A DNA stretch of 6,652 nt from the IMG/VR virus record IMGVR_UViG_2671180921_000008, positions 1 through 6,652 of that record, one strand, 5' to 3'. Positions 1 through 6,652 of this stretch are shown here, piece by piece. Position 1 is the stretch's first letter; each line of letters opens with the position of its first letter. A program made the position numbers and the translations under genes. The notes beneath the pieces are model-generated. The model saw only the letters and a list, made by a program, of their open reading frames with translations. It had not been told where the DNA came from and made no database searches. The DNA is from a virus. Lineage: Duplodnaviria > Heunggongvirae > Uroviricota > Caudoviricetes.

Positions 1-242
1 AATACGGTGCTCCGTTGACGCTTACGCCGAATAAGCTCATCTCTCATGCATTCCGGGCATTCGCTAGGTCTTGAGGCAAACTTAATTGGCCCAGTCGAGT
101 AACGGTTACGCTGCTCAAACTCACCATGTTTTTCACAGATGCCAGTGCCAATTTCTACAGCTGTATGCTCGATAGCAATTGGCGGAGAACTCAATTCTGC
201 AAGTTTTTTCTCAAGTTGGGAGATCTTTTCATCCAGCGTCAT
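1..242 (-). CDS. Hypothetical replication-module protein, N-terminal part only (runs off the window start); sits where lambda has P / the helicase loader
   Basis: Minus-strand ATG at 242..240, 2 nt after the O-like stop (TGA 247..245). Translation MTLDEKISQLEKKLAELSSPPIAIEHTAVEIGTGICEKHGEFEQRNRYSTGPIKFASRPSECPECMRDELIRRKRQRSTV. C-x2-H and C-P-E-C pairs suggest a zinc ribbon. It does not resemble lambda P; function is inferred from position only. Confidence 0.4.
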   Translation of the reverse strand, partial: MTLDEKISQLEKKLAELSSPPIAIEHTAVEIGTGICEKHGEFEQRNRYSTGPIKFASRPSECPECMRDELIRRKRQRSTV

Positions 243-244
243 GT

Positions 245-1120
245 TCACTCCTGCGCCCATGAAGGCATTTCAGTTTGTCCGTAATCTTTGGTGGCAAAGT
301 TTTCCTGCATAGCTCGATGCTGCGGCCTCGGTTGAGATTTCCCCTTTGGAGTCTTGGGCTCAAAAATCCCCTGCCAACCACTGGCGATGCTCTGGTTTAT
401 AATTTCTTCAGGTGTATATCCCTTCCCCAGACTTCTGCTTAGAACGTTGATAGCCTGAGTAACACTTTGCTTAGACTTGATCGACTTACCTATCTCCTTG
501 CGATATGTAACCCACGACAACCATGTTTCTGCTGATAACCAATCAGGCAACTCTGTTTCTAGCGGGTCGAACTTCTGAGAAACTTTTTTGGGGGATATAG
601 GGGGTTTATTAATATTTTCTTTTGTCTTTAAAGAATGTCTTTTGTGTGTCTCTAACTTCGAGACATTGAGTGTCTCTAATTTGGAGACATTTTTTGTCTC
701 TAACTTCGAGACAAAGTTGCTAACTTGGAGACACTTGCTGAATTGCCACGCAGATACCTCAATGTTTACACCGATTTGATTTCCATCCATAAACAGGCAA
801 TTCATTGAAATCAGTTCTTTTTTAGCCTTGTTAACATTCTGCCTTGACAGTCCTGTTAACTGAGCAATTTGCTCATCGGCTATTCGATCTGTTTTCTTAT
901 TGAATCCATATGTTTTCCGGACGTAGGCCAGCATAACTTTCAACTGGCGAGCGGTTAAATCGGCACTTGCGATAGCTTCCAGCAGCTCGTTAGCGAATCT
1001 GGTGTAACCATCATCGATATCAGCCACTCTTCGCTCCTGTTCAACAGGTTCACTCTTCGGCAGGTAAAATACTTCAGCCAGGCTCATTTCCAACCTCCGC
1101 ATCAAAGCATTGGGCTTCAA
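245..1120 (-). CDS. O: Replication initiator, lambda O family (N-terminal iteron-binding domain conserved, C-terminal domain divergent)
   Basis: 291-aa ORF. The segment QERRVADIDDGYTRFANELLEAIASADLTARQLKVMLAYVRKTYGFNKKTDRIADEQ aligns with the lambda O N-terminal domain as I recall it. The ori iterons lie inside the gene, as in lambda. The true start may be ATG 1087..1085, which has a GGAGG 7 nt upstream, rather than 1120. Confidence 0.85.
   Translation of the reverse strand: MKPNALMRRLEMSLAEVFYLPKSEPVEQERRVADIDDGYTRFANELLEAIASADLTARQLKVMLAYVRKTYGFNKKTDRIADEQIAQLTGLSRQNVNKAKKELISMNCLFMDGNQIGVNIEVSAWQFSKCLQVSNFVSKLETKNVSKLETLNVSKLETHKRHSLKTKENINKPPISPKKVSQKFDPLETELPDWLSAETWLSWVTYRKEIGKSIKSKQSVTQAINVLSRSLGKGYTPEEIINQSIASGWQGIFEPKTPKGKSQPRPQHRAMQENFATKDYGQTEMPSWAQE
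648..733. repeat. Replication origin iterons: four 18-bp direct repeats, each an internal inverted repeat (GTCTC...GAGAC), with a flanking AT-rich tract at about 590-647
   Basis: GTCTCTAACTTCGAGACA (648-665), GTCTCTAATTTGGAGACA (672-689), GTCTCTAACTTCGAGACA (696-713), GTTGCTAACTTGGAGACA (716-733), spaced about 24 bp. Inside the O reading frame they encode the repeated VSKLET peptide. The adjacent AT-rich stretch (tttattaatattttcttttgtctttaaagaatg) lies downstream in the O direction, matching lambda ori layout. Confidence 0.75.
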
Positions 1121-1718
1121 GAGACTTAACCATCACCACACTGCCATCTGTATTAATAACTATCGATGAGTTATATTTGCTTATCAGTTGCTTCGCGTAA
1201 TCAATTCCGGCGCGAATAAGGAAATTTTTCACCGCAGGAAGATGACCAACTACACTACCCAGACCTTGCTCTATAAGCTCCTCATTAAGATCAAGCTCAT
1301 TTTCATGGCGAAAAGAAATGAATGAGTCGTAAATTGCGTATTCTGCCGTCTCGCCATTTCTTTCAGGGCCAACCAGCGCCCTTATTTCATTTAGAGATTC
1401 AGAAAGATCATTATCTTCAAGCTTGAAAAACTCTCGATTATCACTAAGCCTCTCTTTTGCAAAGGCTTTATGAATGAGTTTTTCATCTGATGCGGGATTA
1501 TTTGAATGAAAGGCTGCTATCACCTTAAATGGCTTAGGAACGCCAGTAGAGGCTGAAATTTCTTTAGCCCTAACTTCTGGTGAATGCTTAGTCATCCCAA
1601 TCTTATAAATTCCTGGCATGCACTCATTCGAAAGCACATAAACAAAGCCATTTGATTTAAAATCATCTGGCACCTTCATGCTCTTCAGAACCTGGAATTT
1701 GTCATTTTCGTATGTCAT
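1074..1718 (-). CDS. T5orf172 / GIY-YIG-like domain protein (moron between cII/oop and O)
   Basis: 214-aa ORF with AGGAG 6 nt before the ATG. The N-terminal motif GFVYVLSNECMPGIYKIGMT...EVRAKE matches the T5orf172 (MUG113-type GIY-YIG-like) signature as I know it. The C-terminal ~90 aa are unassigned. Lambda has no gene at this position. Confidence 0.65.
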   Translation of the reverse strand: MTYENDKFQVLKSMKVPDDFKSNGFVYVLSNECMPGIYKIGMTKHSPEVRAKEISASTGVPKPFKVIAAFHSNNPASDEKLIHKAFAKERLSDNREFFKLEDNDLSESLNEIRALVGPERNGETAEYAIYDSFISFRHENELDLNEELIEQGLGSVVGHLPAVKNFLIRAGIDYAKQLISKYNSSIVINTDGSVVMVKSLEAQCFDAEVGNEPG

Positions 1719-1731
1719 AATTACTCCTGTG

Positions 1732-1804
1732 GATTGATCCAGTAATTCCCTCAGAATTGCATATCAATTTGCTTAAAATCCTCGGTGGCAGCCGGGGATT
1801 TTTT
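1732..1804 (+). ncRNA. oop: oop-like antisense RNA with intrinsic terminator, overlapping the 3' end of cII
   Basis: GATTGATCCAGTAAT...CCTCAGAA...CCTCGGTGGCAGCCGGGGATTTTTT resembles lambda oop RNA as I recall it. Terminator hairpin 1780-1797 (7 bp, two G-U pairs) followed by a T-run 1799-1804. It is antisense to the cII 3' end. The promoter lies around 1699-1725 (TTGTCA at 1699-1704; the -10 is ambiguous). Confidence 0.5.
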
Positions 1805-2047
1805 CTTTGTGATTTCATCAAGCGCATACTTAAAAGCCCTGCTAATCGGACTGATGTCTGATGCCATTCCGAAAGCACACAAGACCGAAGCAATAAATCT
1901 CCAGTCCGTTCTGCTTATCTTCGATTCATGACAGCCAATCATCTTTGCCAGACCGCGCTGGGTAAGCGTTGACAGGTTGATGAGTAAATCAGTTTCAGCG
2001 CGATCAACGTCGCGCTGTGATAGTTTGCTGTAACTTGTTTGTTCCAT
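1751..2047 (-). CDS. cII: cII-family transcriptional activator (not the lambda allele)
   Basis: 98-aa ORF directly downstream of cro and nutR. The C-terminus KKKSPAATEDFKQIDMQF matches lambda cII KKRPAATERSEQIQMEF, and the central region has the same helix-turn-helix-like layout. Most of the sequence diverges from lambda cII. Confidence 0.8.
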   Translation of the reverse strand: MEQTSYSKLSQRDVDRAETDLLINLSTLTQRGLAKMIGCHESKISRTDWRFIASVLCAFGMASDISPISRAFKYALDEITKKKSPAATEDFKQIDMQF

Positions 2048-2060
2048 TTCTTATGATTTC
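2025..2060 (+). promoter_or_regulatory. Putative pRE (cII-activated promoter) with a TTGC-N6-TTGT repeat
   Basis: TTGCTGTAACTTGT at 2025-2038 resembles the lambda cII site TTGC-N6-TTGC. It overlaps the cII start codon region on the opposite strand, as in lambda. The -10 is not clearly defined. Confidence 0.3.
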
Positions 2061-2074
2061 CAATAGTGAATATT

Positions 2075-2097
2075 ACGCATCTGTTGATGCGTTTTTT
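2075..2097 (+). terminator. Hairpin plus T6 run in the cro-cII intergenic region (intrinsic-terminator-like on plus strand; on the minus strand it lies in the tR1 zone)
   Basis: 7-bp perfect stem ACGCATC (2075-2081) / GATGCGT (2086-2092), 4-nt loop, T-run 2092-2097. Confidence 0.3.
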
Positions 2098-2099
2098 GT

Positions 2100-2137
2100 G
2101 GGGACGAATCATCCCCGACCTGATTGTTTAAAGAGCG
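2100..2137 (-). promoter_or_regulatory. nutR: nutR: boxA CGCTCTTTAA and boxB hairpin GGGGATGATTCGTCCCC
   Basis: On the minus strand: boxA consensus at 2137..2128, an 11-nt spacer, then boxB at 2116..2100. The identical boxB recurs in nutL downstream of pL. Confidence 0.65.
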
Positions 2138-2144
2138 GTGTTAC

Positions 2145-2354
<210 letters not shown>

Positions 2355-2369
2355 TTAGTACATGCAATC

Positions 2370-2439
2370 ATTATCACCGCTAGAGGTAAAATAGTCAACA
2401 CGCACGGTGTTAGATATTTATCCCTTGCGGTGATAGATT
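2370..2439. promoter_or_regulatory. Right operator OR1-OR2-OR3 with divergent promoters pR (toward cro) and pRM (toward cI)
   Basis: OR1 TATCACCGCTAGAGGTA (2372-2388), OR2 CAACACGCACGGTGTTA (2396-2412), OR3 TATCCCTTGCGGTGATA (2419-2435). pR on the minus strand: -35 TTGACT (2398..2393), -10 GATAAT (2375..2370). pRM on the plus strand: -35 TAGATA (2411-2416), 17-bp spacer, -10 TAGATT (2434-2439). The cI ATG at 2446 implies a leaderless transcript, as in lambda. Confidence 0.9.
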
Positions 2440-2442
2440 TAA

Positions 2443-3159
<717 letters not shown>

Positions 3160-3189
3160 AGCACATAGCATTCCTGGATAAAAATACAG

Positions 3190-3232
3190 ATTCCCTTTAT
3201 GGGAAATGAATCTATAATTCCCAAAGAGGGAA
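3190..3232 (+). promoter_or_regulatory. Putative promoter-operator of the toxin-antitoxin cassette: two TTCCC-N5-GGGAA palindromes flanking a TATAAT
   Basis: Palindrome 1 TTCCCTTTATGGGAA (3191-3205); perfect -10 TATAAT (3213-3218); palindrome 2 TTCCCAAAGAGGGAA (3218-3232). This is the usual autoregulated TA operator layout. The -35 is weak. Confidence 0.45.
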
Positions 3233-3244
3233 CTACATCGGATT

Positions 3245-3532
3245 ATGAAGGTCTTAAACGTAGAGAAGCTTCACAGTTTTAGCCGGAAACACAATCAGGC
3301 CAAGGGGGCTTTAGACTCTTGGTATGATGAAGTGAGAAGAGAAAACTGGAAAACGACTCAAGACATACGGAATAGATTTAATTCTGCCGACTTCCTTCCT
3401 GACAACAGGGTAATTTTTAATATAAAAGGCAATAACTATCGGCTCGTTGTCCAAGTTGTTTACCAAGCAGGAATTGTCATAGTTGAAAAAGTTGGAACTC
3501 ATGCAGAGTACGACAAGTGGAGACTTAAATGA
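3245..3532 (+). CDS. higB: HigB-family toxin (ribosome-dependent mRNA interferase, RelE/ParE superfamily)
   Basis: 95-aa ORF. FNIKGNNYRLVVQVVYQAGIVIVEKVGTHAEYD aligns with E. coli HigB (YgjN) FNVGGNELRVVAMVFFESQKCYIREVMTHKEYD along its full length, as I recall that sequence. The stop overlaps the next start (ATGA at 3529-3532). Confidence 0.8.
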   Translation: MKVLNVEKLHSFSRKHNQAKGALDSWYDEVRRENWKTTQDIRNRFNSADFLPDNRVIFNIKGNNYRLVVQVVYQAGIVIVEKVGTHAEYDKWRLK

Positions 3533-4185
3533 ATCGAACTAGCTGGCGCATCATTAAAAATAGTGAAGAGCATGCTGCAGCTATGGAAAGGCTCATTGAA
3601 CTTGCGTCTAGTGATTTACAACCTGGAACTGAAGATTTTGATGAGTTTGAACTACTAGGCTTGCTTATTGAGCACTATGAGTCACGCGAGTTCCCTATGG
3701 ACAAGCCAGACCCCATAGAAGCAATCAAGTTCCGCATGGATCAGCAAGGCCTCTCTTATGCCGACATGAAACAATACATTGGCTCAGCATCTAAAGTATC
3801 TGAGGTCTTAAATCGTAAGCGTCCATTAAGTCTTTCAATGATCCGTAGACTGCATGACGGGCTTGGCATTCCTGCAGATATCTTAATTCAAGATATGAGC
3901 GCAATTGAATGGAGTCTGGTTGACGCTGAGGAAGAAGAAACGACAATGACTAGCGTCATTGTTCAGTGTGAGTCAGCCGCCACATCATCTTCTCCTTATT
4001 ACGCTGAAAAGGCTACAGAATCTTACGTTTCAAAAATGTTGTTCAGCGCAGTAAGGGGTAACGGCGAATGCAAAGAAAAACGGAATGTTTTTTCTTTGAT
4101 AAGTAACTTGTCATCAAGTTTCACAGCAGCTAACAACCTGAATGACGAAATGACTCCTGACGGGAATTACTCATTAGTATCATGA
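3529..4185 (+). CDS. higA: HigA-like HTH antitoxin with a ~95-aa C-terminal extension (candidate chaperone-addiction region)
   Basis: 218-aa ORF. Residues ~1-123 align with E. coli HigA (YgjM): IEAIKFRMDQQGLSYADMKQYIGSASKVSEVLNRKRPLSLSMIRRLHDGLGIPADILIQ versus IAVIRTLMDQYGLTLSDLPEIGSKSMVSRVLSGKRKLTLEHAKKLATRFGISPALFID. Residues ~124-218 are an acidic, Ser-rich extension with aromatic patches (SPYYAEKATESYVSKMLF). Start and stop are both translationally coupled (ATGA) to the neighbours. Confidence 0.75.
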   Translation: MNRTSWRIIKNSEEHAAAMERLIELASSDLQPGTEDFDEFELLGLLIEHYESREFPMDKPDPIEAIKFRMDQQGLSYADMKQYIGSASKVSEVLNRKRPLSLSMIRRLHDGLGIPADILIQDMSAIEWSLVDAEEEETTMTSVIVQCESAATSSSPYYAEKATESYVSKMLFSAVRGNGECKEKRNVFSLISNLSSSFTAANNLNDEMTPDGNYSLVS

Positions 4186-4586
4186 AAATTGAACTCATTA
4201 GCAAAAAAGTTGAACGCTTGGTTATGAAGCAGCTAGAAGCTGATTCAGCGGCAAAAAAAAACCTGAACGCAACCGTTAAGCTGAATAATGAACTTTACAC
4301 TAATGTGAAGGATTCAAAGCTATTTAGAGTGAGATATTTTACCTCCATAACCATTGAAGGTAGACTAGAGATGGACATCACATACGACTTTGATTTTCGG
4401 TCAGAAGATGATTTTTCCCATGAAATGGCAAAATCACATGAGATAAGGTCCATTGCTCCCACTATGGCATATCCCTATATAAAAACATATGCCGAGCAAA
4501 TTATCCTCATGTCAAATCTTGGTAGGTTCAATCTTCCTTACTTTGATTTCTTGACCAATCCCATGGAAACGAACAGCAATAAGTGA
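4182..4586 (+). CDS. SecB-like chaperone (third component of a TAC-type module)
   Basis: 134-aa ORF. YPYIKTYAEQIILMSNLGRFNLPYFDFL aligns with E. coli SecB [31 protein letters not shown], and VKLNNELYTNVKDSKLFRVRYFTSITIEG with SecB [31 protein letters not shown], as I recall SecB. It is coupled to the antitoxin stop by ATGA and has no hydrophobic transmembrane stretch, so it is not RexB-like. Confidence 0.65.
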   Translation: MKIELISKKVERLVMKQLEADSAAKKNLNATVKLNNELYTNVKDSKLFRVRYFTSITIEGRLEMDITYDFDFRSEDDFSHEMAKSHEIRSIAPTMAYPYIKTYAEQIILMSNLGRFNLPYFDFLTNPMETNSNK

Positions 4587-4595
4587 AATCCCCCA

Positions 4596-4621
4596 CCCGG
4601 CCTCAGCGCCGGGTTTTCTTT
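4596..4621 (+). terminator. Rho-independent terminator closing the cI/cassette transcription unit
   Basis: Perfect 6-bp GC stem CCCGGC (4596-4601) / GCCGGG (4608-4613), 6-nt loop, then TTTTCTTT. It lies 10 nt after the last cassette stop, just upstream of OL. Confidence 0.7.
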
Positions 4622-4774
4622 GCCTCTCGATCCCCACACCTAATAACACCATAACCAATTGTATTTATTGAAAAATTTATAGATACAACTTGCTAAATAG
4701 TGCAATTCTGATCCCTCACCTACCAAACAATGCCCCCCCTGCAAAAAATAAATCCATATAAAAAACATACAGAT

Positions 4775-4837
4775 AACCATCTGCGGTGATAAATTATCTC
4801 TGGCGGTGTTGACACACATACCACTAGCGGTGATACT
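4775..4837 (+). promoter_or_regulatory. Left operator OL3-OL2-OL1 with promoter pL (rightward in this window)
   Basis: OL3 AACCATCTGCGGTGATA (4775-4791), OL2 TATCTCTGGCGGTGTTG (4795-4811), OL1 TACCACTAGCGGTGATA (4819-4835). -35 TTGACA (4809-4814), 17-bp spacer, -10 GATACT (4832-4837). Near-identical to the lambda pL/OL region as I recall it. Confidence 0.88.
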
Positions 4838-4882
4838 AAACACATCAGCAGGAAGCTGGAAGCCAAACGGAACAGATTGGCA

Positions 4883-4921
4883 GGCTCTTTAACATTGATG
4901 GAATGGGGATGATTCGTCCCC
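4883..4921 (+). promoter_or_regulatory. nutL: nutL: boxA GGCTCTTTAA and boxB hairpin GGGGATGATTCGTCCCC
   Basis: boxA at 4883-4892, 12-nt spacer, boxB at 4905-4921 (GGGGA/TCCCC stem). boxB is identical to nutR on the other strand and lies about 45-80 nt downstream of the pL start. Confidence 0.65.
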
Positions 4922-5076
4922 ACCAAAGAGAGGTTGGCTTTGGGATTTGATGAATGCGCAGGTCGATGCGCTACCACTTAGCGGTGAGCACCTGCATTTT
5001 GGGCAGGATGGATAGCCGCAATAAGGGGATCGACACATGACATCAAATCACCAAAGTCAATCATCGGAGGTATCCA

Positions 5077-5283
5077 GTGAAAGCAAGAGAGATTCGCAAA
5101 CTCGAACGCGCTCGTAAGCACAAAGAGGCGACAGCAAAACGTAAAAATATTGACCGTGTTTCAATGGTGGTTTCGCTAGCAGGAGCGAATAGGAAGAAGG
5201 TTGAATGTGGTTCGTGCTGCCTGCCAAACGTAGCCATTTACGCGGCAGGCTACCGGAAATCAAAACAACTGACAGCAAGATGA
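5077..5283 (+). CDS. N: N-like transcription antiterminator, N-terminal arginine-rich part; apparently truncated (see the out-of-frame C-terminal remnant)
   Basis: GTG start at 5077 with GGAGG 6 nt upstream. N-terminus MKAREIRKLERARKHKEATAKRKNIDR is an arginine/lysine-rich motif typical of N-family boxB-binding peptides. First gene after pL-nutL. Ends at TGA 5281-5283 after 68 codons. Confidence 0.6.
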   Translation: MKAREIRKLERARKHKEATAKRKNIDRVSMVVSLAGANRKKVECGSCCLPNVAIYAAGYRKSKQLTAR

Positions 5284-5285
5284 CT

Positions 5286-5333
5286 TGTGTTGGTCGCCAG
5301 AAAATGAAATTAGGCAGCAAACCACTTATTTGA
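5286..5333 (+). pseudogene. N: Out-of-frame 3' segment encoding a lambda-N-like C-terminus (CVGRQKMKLGSKPLI-stop)
   Basis: In the frame offset by 2 nt from the N ORF, 5286-5330 reads CVGRQKMKLGSKPLI then TGA. Lambda N ends ...TCSGRQKIKGKSIPLI as I recall it. This frame is closed upstream by TGA at 5202-5204. Confidence 0.5.
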
Positions 5334-5341
5334 GGTGATAT

Positions 5342-5428
5342 ATGGAAGAAGAATTTGAAGAGTTCGAAGAGCATCCTCAGGATGTGATGGAACAATACCA
5401 GGACTACCCTTATGACTACGACTATTGA
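5342..5428 (+). CDS. Small acidic 28-aa ORF (MEEEFEEFEEHPQDVMEQYQDYPYDYDY), possibly the lambda orf28 equivalent
   Basis: ATG at 5342 with GAGGTGA 4-5 nt upstream. It overlaps the start of the next ORF. Below the length cutoff of the ORF track. Function unknown. Confidence 0.4.
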   Translation: MEEEFEEFEEHPQDVMEQYQDYPYDYDY

Positions 5429-5612
5429 TAAGAATCAATGGTGTGGACAATTCAAGCGATGCAATGGATGCAAGCTGCAATCGGAATGCATGGTTAAGCC
5501 TGAAGAAATGTTTCCTGTAATGGAAGATGGGAAATATGTCGATAAATGGGCAATACGAACGACGGCAATGATTGCCAGAGAACTTGGTAAACAGAACAAC
5601 AAGGCTGCCTGA
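5412..5612 (+). CDS. ral: Small Cys-rich protein, 66 aa; tentatively Ral-like (restriction alleviation) by length and position
   Basis: 66-aa ORF MTTTIDKNQWCGQFKRCNGCKLQSECMV... with C-x5-C-x2-C-x5-C spacing. Same length and early-left-operon position as lambda Ral. I cannot verify sequence identity from memory with certainty. Confidence 0.45.
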   Translation: MTTTIDKNQWCGQFKRCNGCKLQSECMVKPEEMFPVMEDGKYVDKWAIRTTAMIARELGKQNNKAA

Positions 5613-5639
5613 TGGTGGCCTTTATTTTTAAGGAGCTAT

Positions 5640-5882
5640 ATGAAAATTAAAACTATGGCAGCAAGCCCATTAAGCGGTCGTATTTTTCAAGGAACATTAA
5701 ACACTGAAAAAGGAATGTGGGTAGGAAAGAAAGAAGATGTCACCGAACAAGCGATTAAGGCAGTAACTGAACACCTGATGATAAAAGACCGGAAATATGC
5801 ATACGAAACGAATGATGGCAAATGGGTGATAATAATGCATCAACTGGTTGATGAATTACCAGAAGAGTTTATTGCTGATTAA
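5640..5882 (+). CDS. Hypothetical protein, 80 aa
   Basis: ATG at 5640 with AGGAG 4 nt upstream. No motif recognised. Confidence 0.5.
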   Translation: MKIKTMAASPLSGRIFQGTLNTEKGMWVGKKEDVTEQAIKAVTEHLMIKDRKYAYETNDGKWVIIMHQLVDELPEEFIAD

Positions 5883-6008
5883 AATTATTTTGGCATAAAC
5901 AACAGAATAAACACTGCACTGTGTATTCATTCCAACGAGTGAATACACGGAGCAATGTCGCTCGTAACTAAACAGGAGCCGACTTGTTCTGATTATTGGA
6001 AATCTTCT

Positions 6009-6036
6009 TTGCCCTCTAATGTGAGGGCGATTTTTA
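6009..6036 (+). terminator. Rho-independent terminator (tL-type, expected to be read through under N antitermination)
   Basis: Stem GCCCTC (6011-6016) / GAGGGC (6023-6028), extendable by two pairs, 6-nt loop, T-run 6031-6035. Confidence 0.55.
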
Positions 6037-6055
6037 TCTATGAGGATATGAATAG

Positions 6056-6211
6056 ATGTCAAACATCAAAAAATACATCATTGATTACGACTGGAAAGCA
6101 TCAATAGAAATTGAAATTGACCATGACGTAATGATAGAGGAAAAACTTCACCAGATTAATAATTCTGGTCAGACTCTGAATACCGACTCAATAAACACGG
6201 CTCTGTATTAA
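6056..6211 (+). CDS. Hypothetical protein, 51 aa (possibly the 5' half of a frameshift-split gene)
   Basis: ATG at 6056 with GAGGA 9 nt upstream. MSNIKKYIIDYDWKASIEIEIDHDVMIEEKLHQINNSGQTLNTDSINTALY. Below the ORF-track cutoff. Confidence 0.35.
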   Translation: MSNIKKYIIDYDWKASIEIEIDHDVMIEEKLHQINNSGQTLNTDSINTALY

Positions 6212-6225
6212 ATGCTGTATTAATC

Positions 6226-6423
6226 ATGCTGGAGCAACATGCTCTGCTTATAGCAATTTCAAGCGACTTAAATGCATATGGTGTTGTGTGTGAGTTCGAC
6301 TGGAATGATGGAAATGGTCAGGAAGGATGGCCTCCAATGGATGGTAGTGAAGGAATAAGAATTACCGATATCGATACATCAGGAATATTTGATTCAGATG
6401 ATATGACTATCAAGGCCGCCTGA
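6226..6423 (+). CDS. Hypothetical acidic protein, 65 aa (possibly the 3' half of a split gene)
   Basis: ORF from the track. Its frame is already open from 6163, overlapping the 3' end of the preceding ORF in a different frame. Confidence 0.4.
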   Translation: MLEQHALLIAISSDLNAYGVVCEFDWNDGNGQEGWPPMDGSEGIRITDIDTSGIFDSDDMTIKAA

Positions 6424-6448
6424 GCGCGGCGTTACCGCATACCAATTA

Positions 6449-6469
6449 CGCTTCACTCGAGGCGTTTTT
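6449..6469 (+). terminator. Weak terminator-like hairpin with T5 run upstream of cIII
   Basis: Stem CGCTTC (6449-6454) / GAGGCG (6459-6464) with one G-U pair, 4-nt loop, T-run 6465-6469. Confidence 0.3.
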
Positions 6470-6495
6470 CGTTATGTATAAATAAGGAGCACACC

Positions 6496-6636
6496 CTGCA
6501 ATATGCCATTGCAGGGTGGCCTGTTGCTGGCTGCCCTTCCGAATCTTTACTTGAACGAATCACCCGTAAATTACGTGACGGATGGAAACGCCTTATCGAC
6601 ATACTTAATCAGCCAGGAGTTCCCAAAAATGGATAA
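6496..6636 (+). CDS. cIII: cIII-like ORF (lambda cIII homolog) lacking an ATG at the expected start (CTG) and ending at a TAA earlier than I recall for lambda
   Basis: Frame reads (L)QYAIAGWPVAGCPSESLLERITRKLRDGWKRLIDILNQPGVPKNG then TAA. This matches lambda cIII MQYAIAGWPVAGCPSESLLERITRKLRDGWKRLIDILNQPGVPKNG... as I recall it. AAGGAG (6484-6489) sits 6 nt before the CTG at 6496. The TAA at 6634-6636 coincides with codon 3 of the overlapping kil-like frame. Confidence 0.5.
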   Translation: MQYAIAGWPVAGCPSESLLERITRKLRDGWKRLIDILNQPGVPKNG

Positions 6637-6652
6637 AACACTTATGGCTATC
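6629..6652 (+). CDS. kil: kil-like ORF, first 8 codons only (MDKTLMAI...), overlapping the cIII 3' end
   Basis: ATG at 6629 with AGGAG 9 nt upstream. The N-terminus resembles lambda Kil (MDQTLMAI...) as I recall it, and lambda kil overlaps cIII in the same way. It runs off the window end. Confidence 0.35.

Follow-up and report, generated by a model that had tools for sequence, protein, structure and literature searches.

A HigBAC toxin-antitoxin-chaperone cassette at the rexAB position of a lambda-immunity prophage: sister allele to a published anti-phage system

The window analysed here, a stretch of 6,652 nucleotides of caudoviral DNA (IMG/VR record IMGVR_UViG_2671180921_000008, positions 1 to 6,652), is the immunity region of a lambdoid prophage, written in the cI direction. 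Between the cI stop codon and the terminator preceding OL it carries three small genes, higB, higA and higC, in the place of lambda rexA and rexB. We read these as a HigBAC anti-phage module, that is, a toxin-antitoxin-chaperone (TAC) cassette that a lambda-immunity prophage carries as a moron between cI and N, and put the probability of this reading at roughly 0.88. The cassette is a sister allele of the defence system of E. coli NT1F31, at the location already published for it, and is in this sense known. The study of the NT1F31 system, by Mets et al., was reportedly published in Cell Host & Microbe in 2024.

An earlier note on this DNA, made by reading the sequence alone, had proposed a TAC-like cassette at 3190-4621, a span that runs from the regulatory region over the genes to the terminator. 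It had also been aware of no characterised example in a lambdoid immunity region. This claim of novelty was wrong, since the window carries a sister allele of the NT1F31 HigBAC, which Mets et al. studied in the same slot.

Position and gene organization

Alignment to lambda bears out to the base the proposal that the cassette sits exactly in the rexAB slot. Positions 2131-3159 of the window correspond to lambda 38255-37227 (92.6% identity), the alignment ending with the final nucleotide of the cI stop codon, and positions 4595-4856 correspond to lambda 35825-35570, which takes in the final nucleotide of rexB, the terminator, OL and pL. Because the flanking alignments end at these two points, the 1435 bases between them (3160-4594) replace lambda rexA-rexB; they stand in for 1401 lambda bases (35826-37226) that include both genes. 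The cassette is an exact replacement, reaching from the cI stop codon to the post-rexB terminator.

The three genes are consecutive, full-length open reading frames (ORFs) on the plus strand, higA extending from 3529 to 4185 (Table 1). They are joined by ATGA stop/start overlaps at 3529-3532 (higB/higA) and 4182-4185 (higA/higC), so that the TAC gene order and the coupling read in the earlier note are both present in the ORFs. A single terminator follows the third gene and none lies inside the operon. Its hairpin (4595-4614, followed by TTTTCTTT; -13.7 kcal/mol) aligns with lambda from 35825 onward, which makes it lambda's own element, outside the cassette proper.

Table 1. Features of the cassette and its immediate neighbours (positions in the window)
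Feature	Position	Strand	Basis
pRM-like promoter (TAGATA, 17 nt, TAGATT)	2411-2439	+	Read from the sequence; directly before the leaderless cI start
cI repressor, lambda immunity type, 237 aa	2446-3159	+	Pfam HTH_3 and Peptidase_S24; aligns with lambda cI to the stop codon
Palindrome 1, TTCCCTTTATGGGAA; candidate HigA operator over the -35 position	3191-3205		TTCCC-N5-GGGAA
TATAAT, perfect -10 hexamer with weak -35; candidate autonomous higBAC promoter	3213-3218	+	Start expected near 3225
Palindrome 2, TTCCCAAAGAGGGAA; candidate HigA operator over the transcription start	3218-3232		TTCCC-N5-GGGAA
higB, RelE-superfamily ribosome-dependent mRNA interferase toxin, 95 aa	3245-3532	+	PF09907; PDB 5ycl/5ifg; likeness to NT1F31 HigB
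higA residues 1-121, toxin-neutralising N-terminus and helix-turn-helix DNA-binding domain	3529-3891	+	PDB 5ifg_B/5ycl_A; PADLOC
higA residues 122-218, chaperone-addiction (ChAD) extension, and stop codon	3892-4185	+	Mapping by Mets et al.; no domain match
higC, predicted SecB-fold TAC chaperone and phage sensor, 134 aa	4182-4586	+	AlphaFold2, Foldseek, PADLOC; Y39, N41, R49 and D71 present
Intrinsic terminator	4595-4622	+	7-bp stem, 6 GC pairs, T tract; homologous to the lambda post-rexB terminator
OL operators and pL (TTGACA, 17 nt, GATACT)	4776-4837	+	Right-hand neighbour of the slot

Toxin, antitoxin and chaperone

HigB matches the Pfam family HigB_toxin (PF09907) with an E value of 2.8e-30 and 104.8 bits (cut-off 27), and the solved E. 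coli HigB mRNA interferases (PDB 5ycl and 5ifg) with an E value of about 6e-5, the C-terminal THxEYD motif included. In PADLOC it matches the profile PD-Lambda-2_A (E 1e-43). HigA, a protein of 218 residues, matches the helix-turn-helix of solved HigA (5ycl_A and 5ifg_B; E about 6e-5) over residues 53-119, and the first 125 positions of the PADLOC profile PD-Lambda-2_B (E 3e-50) over residues 5-127; against Pfam HTH_3 it scores 20.4 bits, just under the cut-off of 23. PF09907 and the HigB/HigA structures 5ifg and 5ycl show the toxin and the antitoxin to be homologues of a canonical type II pair. Homology to the 138-residue E. coli HigA stops near residue 119, and the 97 residues from 122 to 218 gave no domain match; this C-terminal extension is without counterpart in the two-gene homologues. 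Its aromatic anchors, W128, Y158, F188 and Y214, are spaced at about 30 residues. A search of NCBIfam returned no meaningful match for HigB, HigA or HigC.

The assignment of HigC as a chaperone rests on its fold and on the PADLOC CmdC chaperone profile (PD-T4-9_C, E 2.8e-11), because sequence searches of Pfam and the PDB came back empty. An AlphaFold2 model, for which 20 homologues were used, reached a pLDDT (predicted local distance difference test score) of 86.7 and has four long strands followed by a long helix. The best Foldseek match of this model was Rv1957, the TAC chaperone of Mycobacterium tuberculosis, solved with the HigA1 extension peptide (5MTW; E 2.9e-7, template modelling (TM) score 0.72-0.76). 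It also matched SecB of E. coli (1QYN, TM score 0.74) and of Haemophilus influenzae, with 1FX3 among the Foldseek matches. As modelled, the third protein has the SecB fold and is SecB-like while lying outside the Pfam SecB sequence family, its kinship visible at the level of the predicted fold only. The profile searches and the structure prediction that the earlier note had called for were all carried out, and in each case the outcome favoured it: the toxin is HigB-like, the antitoxin is HigA-like with a long C-terminal extension, and the third protein is SecB-like in its predicted structure.

The published homologue in E. coli NT1F31

In NT1F31, HigBAC belongs to a lambdoid prophage, where it follows cI at the RexAB locus (Mets et al., bioRxiv 10.1101/2024.02.24.581848; the source of all that is said below of this system). 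HigBA is toxic there unless HigC is supplied, that is, the pair is chaperone-addicted, and the dependence on HigC is lost when HigA residues 122-218 are deleted. The toxin blocks translation, as seen by the arrest of 35S-Met incorporation. The operon gives strong protection from lambda-vir as well as Bas25, and escape phages carry the substitution S54P in gpV. This protein, the lambda major tail protein, is the trigger: it binds HigC and competes with the HigA extension, as determined by isothermal titration calorimetry. HigA is inactivated independently of ClpXP, and it is the chaperone that sets the sensing range. Residues relevant to function are W128, F158, F188 and Y214 of HigA and R49 of HigC, and mass spectrometry after hydrogen-deuterium exchange (HDX-MS) places the peptide groove of HigC in strands 1-3 and helix 1. 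Mets et al. thereby ran essentially the experiments that the earlier note had proposed (toxin, toxin with antitoxin, both with the chaperone, and a phage panel), and identified the trigger.

The window's cassette and that of NT1F31 agree in the three genes, their order, their lengths (95, 218 and 134 residues), the ATGA coupling and the slot downstream of cI. The span of the extension, 122-218, is likewise the same, with W128, F188 and Y214, as are Y39, N41, R49 and D71 of HigC. Three of the 95 residues of HigB differ (96.8% identity), and within the aligned promoter region the upstream palindromes and TATAAT show no difference. HigA position 158 is Y in the window and F in NT1F31, a conservative difference, and the neighbouring repressor is of the lambda type in the window as against an H-19B/BP-4795-type cI in the NT1F31 group. 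Dataset S1 of Mets et al. contains NT1F31 higB, 150 bases upstream, the peptide HigA 121-146 and primers for mutagenesis. Of these, the peptide, the primers and the upstream stretch agree with the allele of BP-4795 and other Shiga toxin (Stx) phages, not with that of the window. The high protein identity and the conserved mapped residues, together with the slot downstream of the repressor, mark the cassette as a HigBAC of the NT1F31 type. The abortive-infection role suggested in the earlier note likewise holds for the HigBAC family. Reading sequence alone can therefore recover a genuine defence system, and no new kind of system is added.

Transcription of the cassette

The hexamers before the leaderless cI start, which we take from established knowledge of lambda to be pRM, are the same as in lambda, as is the leaderless start itself. 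A terminator scan found no plus-strand terminator between cI and higB. By analogy with cI-rexA-rexB, read-through transcription of the cassette would probably start at pRM.

A promoter of its own also likely precedes higB. The TATAAT hexamer is accompanied by two palindromes of the form TTCCC-N5-GGGAA, a pattern seen twice in the window where 0.01 occurrences are expected. The half-sites are invariant across the E. coli, Klebsiella, Citrobacter and Serratia loci, in which spacers, flanks and coding sequence vary, and TATAAT is unchanged in all five aligned loci, including the Serratia locus without an upstream repressor. We consider HigA the likely binder, because one site lies over the -35 position and the other over the start, which fits the autoregulation of type II toxin-antitoxin systems. 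The text of the Mets et al. preprint mentions neither operators nor a native promoter, and for specialists this candidate HigA-controlled promoter with its operator pair goes beyond it. The expectation in the earlier note of pRM read-through together with a separate promoter has held up as a prediction.

Divergence of the sensor half

Compared with the copy in BP-4795, which belongs to the NT1F31 allele group, the window's cassette is 94.9% identical in nucleotides, and the proteins are 93.6% (HigA) and 88.1% (HigC) identical. Residues 1-138 of HigA are the same in both, and all 14 of its substitutions fall in 139-218, that is, within the 97-residue extension. Nine of the changes in HigC cluster in residues 16-33, which span the end of strand 1, the loop after it and the first part of strand 2. 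Judged by sequence, divergence between the alleles is limited to the sensor half, extension plus HigC. Across genera the same parts diverge much faster than the rest: identities are 38-86% for the extension and 60-88% for HigC, against 84-100% for HigB and the N-terminal part of HigA. Variation is greatest in the extension, where all four aromatic anchors are kept, a pattern that agrees with a supplementary figure legend of Mets et al. (bioRxiv 10.1101/2024.02.24.581848).

These differences would be expected if the window's HigC and extension had drifted to a phage protein other than gpV, the slot then holding a family of co-evolving, allele-specific sensors. The cluster at 16-33 touches two of the strands that contribute to the HDX-MS groove, and the chaperone is the component that sets the sensing range. 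Against such a shift, the pocket residues and aromatic anchors are unchanged, and the pairwise ratio of nonsynonymous to synonymous substitution rates (dN/dS) stays below 1 in the extension (0.45) and in HigC (0.27), with no detectable positive selection; the values for higB and the N-terminal part of higA are 0.33 and 0. No region exceeds 1 in this comparison of two alleles, which points to purifying selection between them, and we do not claim positive selection on the sensor. On balance we think it unlikely, if clearly possible, that the trigger has changed, and expect the same trigger as in NT1F31 or a similar one. Allelic variation confined to the sensor offers a ready-made test for the evolution of chaperone-based sensing specificity.

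A two-part suggestion, which we regard as speculative and doubtful, is that the diverged sensor beside the lambda-type repressor may recognise a protein other than gpV and that the dual-palindrome promoter may keep HigBAC on without pRM. A HigBAC independent of pRM would oblige induced carrier phages to avoid or tolerate self-triggering.

Several observations weigh against the assignment of the window's cassette as a HigBAC defence module of the NT1F31 kind. HigC differs from the BP-4795 protein in 16 of 134 residues, and with this and the 14 changes in the 97 residues of the extension, the trigger specificity of the window allele could, from its sequence, differ from that of NT1F31. HigC matched no Pfam family at E <= 1, SecB (PF02556) included, and no PDB sequence at E <= 10. 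The consensus promoter scan missed the putative higBAC promoter owing to its poor -35 hexamer. Finally, in the related system PD-lambda-2 it is the B component that is toxic alone and A that rescues (Vassallo et al. 2022), so that roles cannot be assumed from homology in every relative.

Distribution and exchange

The cassette occurs in 88 of 5426 complete E. coli genomes, five with the window's allele and 83 with the other, and in 30 phage records, most of them Stx1a-converting phages, together with BP-4795 and ST2-8624. Its frequency in Shiga-toxin phages may bear on competition between phages in Shiga toxin-producing E. coli. From base 29 on, the window has no mismatches to contigs, 6-15 kb long, of two independent E. 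coli draft assemblies. In public databases the three proteins appear as a HigB-family toxin, a helix-turn-helix protein or HigA, and a hypothetical protein.

Both alleles adjoin both repressor types. The window's HigA allele (WP_062898284.1) stands beside an H-19B/BP-4795-type repressor in strain CUVM3 and beside a lambda-type cI in strain 2017.06.05CC; as one allele is found beside two repressor types, cassette alleles and immunity types reassort freely. In BP-4795 (4944-4970) and NT1F31 a 27-base remnant of the 3' end of a lambda-type cI (QWPEETFG and stop) lies just before the cassette, following the phage's own, unrelated cI; its counterpart in the window is 3133-3159. Both also share lambda-type sequence to about 130 bases past the terminator. 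The remnant and the shared downstream flank indicate that the Stx-type phages acquired the cassette from a lambda-immunity relative when the flanks recombined. Prophages of Klebsiella and Citrobacter again have the cassette downstream of a cI-like repressor. A 60%-identical HigBAC is found in a P22-like element of Serratia (3055-4405 of the locus), not after a repressor; its neighbours are a DUF927 primase-like gene and genes for P22-type ejection proteins, and the two palindromes and TATAAT are retained.

Searched with lambda gpV by tblastn, four carrier stretches yielded no homologue: Stx1a phage JNE122398 (5000-54143), ST2-8624 (13000-62822), an 11-kb region surrounding the BP-4795 cassette, and, for strain 2017.06.05CC, the late-gene side of its P22-like remnant. 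These carriers are of the short-tailed Stx-phage or P22-like types, and in the annotation of CUVM3 the capsid genes are of the P22 type and a lambda-type major tail protein is absent. In this small sample, carriers without gpV fit a weapon that is aimed at siphoviruses and not triggered by its own phage.

Passage of the cassette as a unit between unrelated immunity types, with flanking remnants, resembles the behaviour of selfish modules, and HigBA first came to notice as a locus that stabilises plasmids (introduction of Mets et al., bioRxiv 10.1101/2024.02.24.581848). The cassette might accordingly serve mainly to keep the prophage or its immunity region by addiction, with no significant phage exclusion. 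We find this very improbable: the NT1F31 allele protects strongly from lambda-vir as well as Bas25 and has a defined phage trigger, the slot is a recognised defence locus (RexAB, BstA), and post-segregational killing is without an obvious target for a prophage integrated in the chromosome. That the window's copy is a decaying, non-functional remnant, as the frameshifted neighbouring gene at 6056-6423 and the degraded state of some carrier prophages might suggest, is hardly credible given three full-length ORFs, conserved overlaps, key residues, operators and terminator, dN/dS below 1, and identical sequence in independent assemblies.

The slot can also hold a different cassette. In a prophage of E. 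coli PE15 with a lambda-type cI (NZ_CP041628.1, 1556468-1557598) it contains genes for YoaK, HicA (PF07927), a HicB of 148 residues (PF05534 plus a C-terminal extension of about 48 residues) and a 141-residue protein whose start overlaps the HicB stop, closed by the same terminator. An AlphaFold2 model of a 99%-identical relative of the last protein (pLDDT 81.6) has Rv1957 as its best match (5MTW; E 6.6e-5, TM score 0.71). Sequence comparison of the 141-residue protein with HigC gave E values of 0.33 (BLASTP) and 0.057 (hhalign). By this model, a second TAC cassette, of the HicAB type, occupies the slot in PE15. Whole TAC cassettes with different toxins, HigBA and HicAB, would thus be swapped between fixed junctions, the cI stop codon and the terminator.

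Proposed mode of action

Under the HigBAC reading, higBAC would be transcribed in the lysogen by read-through from pRM, and probably from its own HigA-controlled promoter, with coupled translation to follow. HigB would be a ribosome-dependent, mRNA-cleaving toxin neutralised by HigA. The disordered 97-residue extension would make HigA prone to aggregation unless a tetramer of HigC holds its four aromatic anchors, and the resting state would be an inert complex of HigB, HigA and the HigC tetramer, with the extension in the chaperone grooves. On infection by a siphovirus, an abundant structural protein (gpV for the NT1F31 allele) would bind the same grooves and leave HigA unprotected. With HigA lost, HigB would be freed to cleave mRNA on the ribosome, translation would stop and the infection would be restricted.

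Other features of the window

The minus strand carries a replication O-like gene, a T5orf172/MUG113 gene, cII and cro; the plus strand carries cI, the three cassette genes, the terminator, OL/pL, N, ral and the cIII thermoregulator. The T5orf172/MUG113 (GIY-YIG-like) gene (1074-1718, minus strand, 214 aa) sits between cII and the O-like gene, whose start it overlaps; it is present at this position in strain HZ13 and absent in lambda, BP-4795 and strain 2017.06.05CC. Inside the O-like gene, at 610-740, are repeated units containing GTCTC/GAGAC, for instance TCTCTAACTTCGAGACA, which are probably origin iterons as in lambda. A match to the Rfam element Lambda_thermo, the cIII thermoregulator RNA (6483-6541, 81 bits), places cIII at the right end of the window. 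The notion that the N ORF (68 aa, 5077-5283) is truncated was dropped in view of its arginine-rich N-terminus, a significant N_peptide match and the same call in other assemblies.

At 6056-6423 a homologue of BP-4795 ORF17 (122 aa) is broken into ORFs of 51 and 65 residues by the loss of a single base from a T run near 6164. The frameshift is probably real, because it is the same in two independent assemblies. ORF17 is annotated in BP-4795 as a putative ssb, and related genomes list a DUF2528 family protein in the region.

Comparison with other known systems

With HigB1-HigA1-Rv1957 of M. tuberculosis (5MTW) the window's cassette shares the gene order, the HigBA unit and an antitoxin extension of the kind bound by a SecB-fold tetramer. 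It differs in that the two chaperones are only 16-17% identical, the window's extension is more than twice as long, and the mycobacterial system is chromosomal and without a reported phage role.

CmdTAC (PD-T4-9; Vassallo et al. 2022, PMC9519451) is likewise a prophage-borne TAC defence system, and HigC matches its CmdC profile. Its toxin CmdT, however, is an mRNA ADP-ribosyltransferase, its antitoxin is unrelated, and it defends against T-even phages. We rejected identity with CmdTAC, the chaperone alone matching and the window's toxin belonging to the HigB family. PD-lambda-2 (Vassallo et al. 2022) acts against lambda, and its A and B profiles are matched by HigB and the N-terminal part of HigA. 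PD-lambda-2B, however, has a C-terminal peptidase domain where HigA has its extension, and the third gene of that system encodes a P4-antitoxin-like protein and not a SecB fold. Identity with PD-lambda-2 was rejected as well: HigA covers only positions 3-125 of the 402 in PD-Lambda-2_B, and the third gene matches CmdC, not PD-Lambda-2_C.

Lambda RexAB and BstA of Salmonella phage BTP1 are likewise located between the repressor gene and the pre-OL terminator, and are also expressed in the lysogen with abortive-infection functions. RexAB has been described as combining a sensor and an ion channel, and BstA as one protein that comes with a DNA self-immunity element; neither has any kinship with HigBAC in sequence or mechanism.

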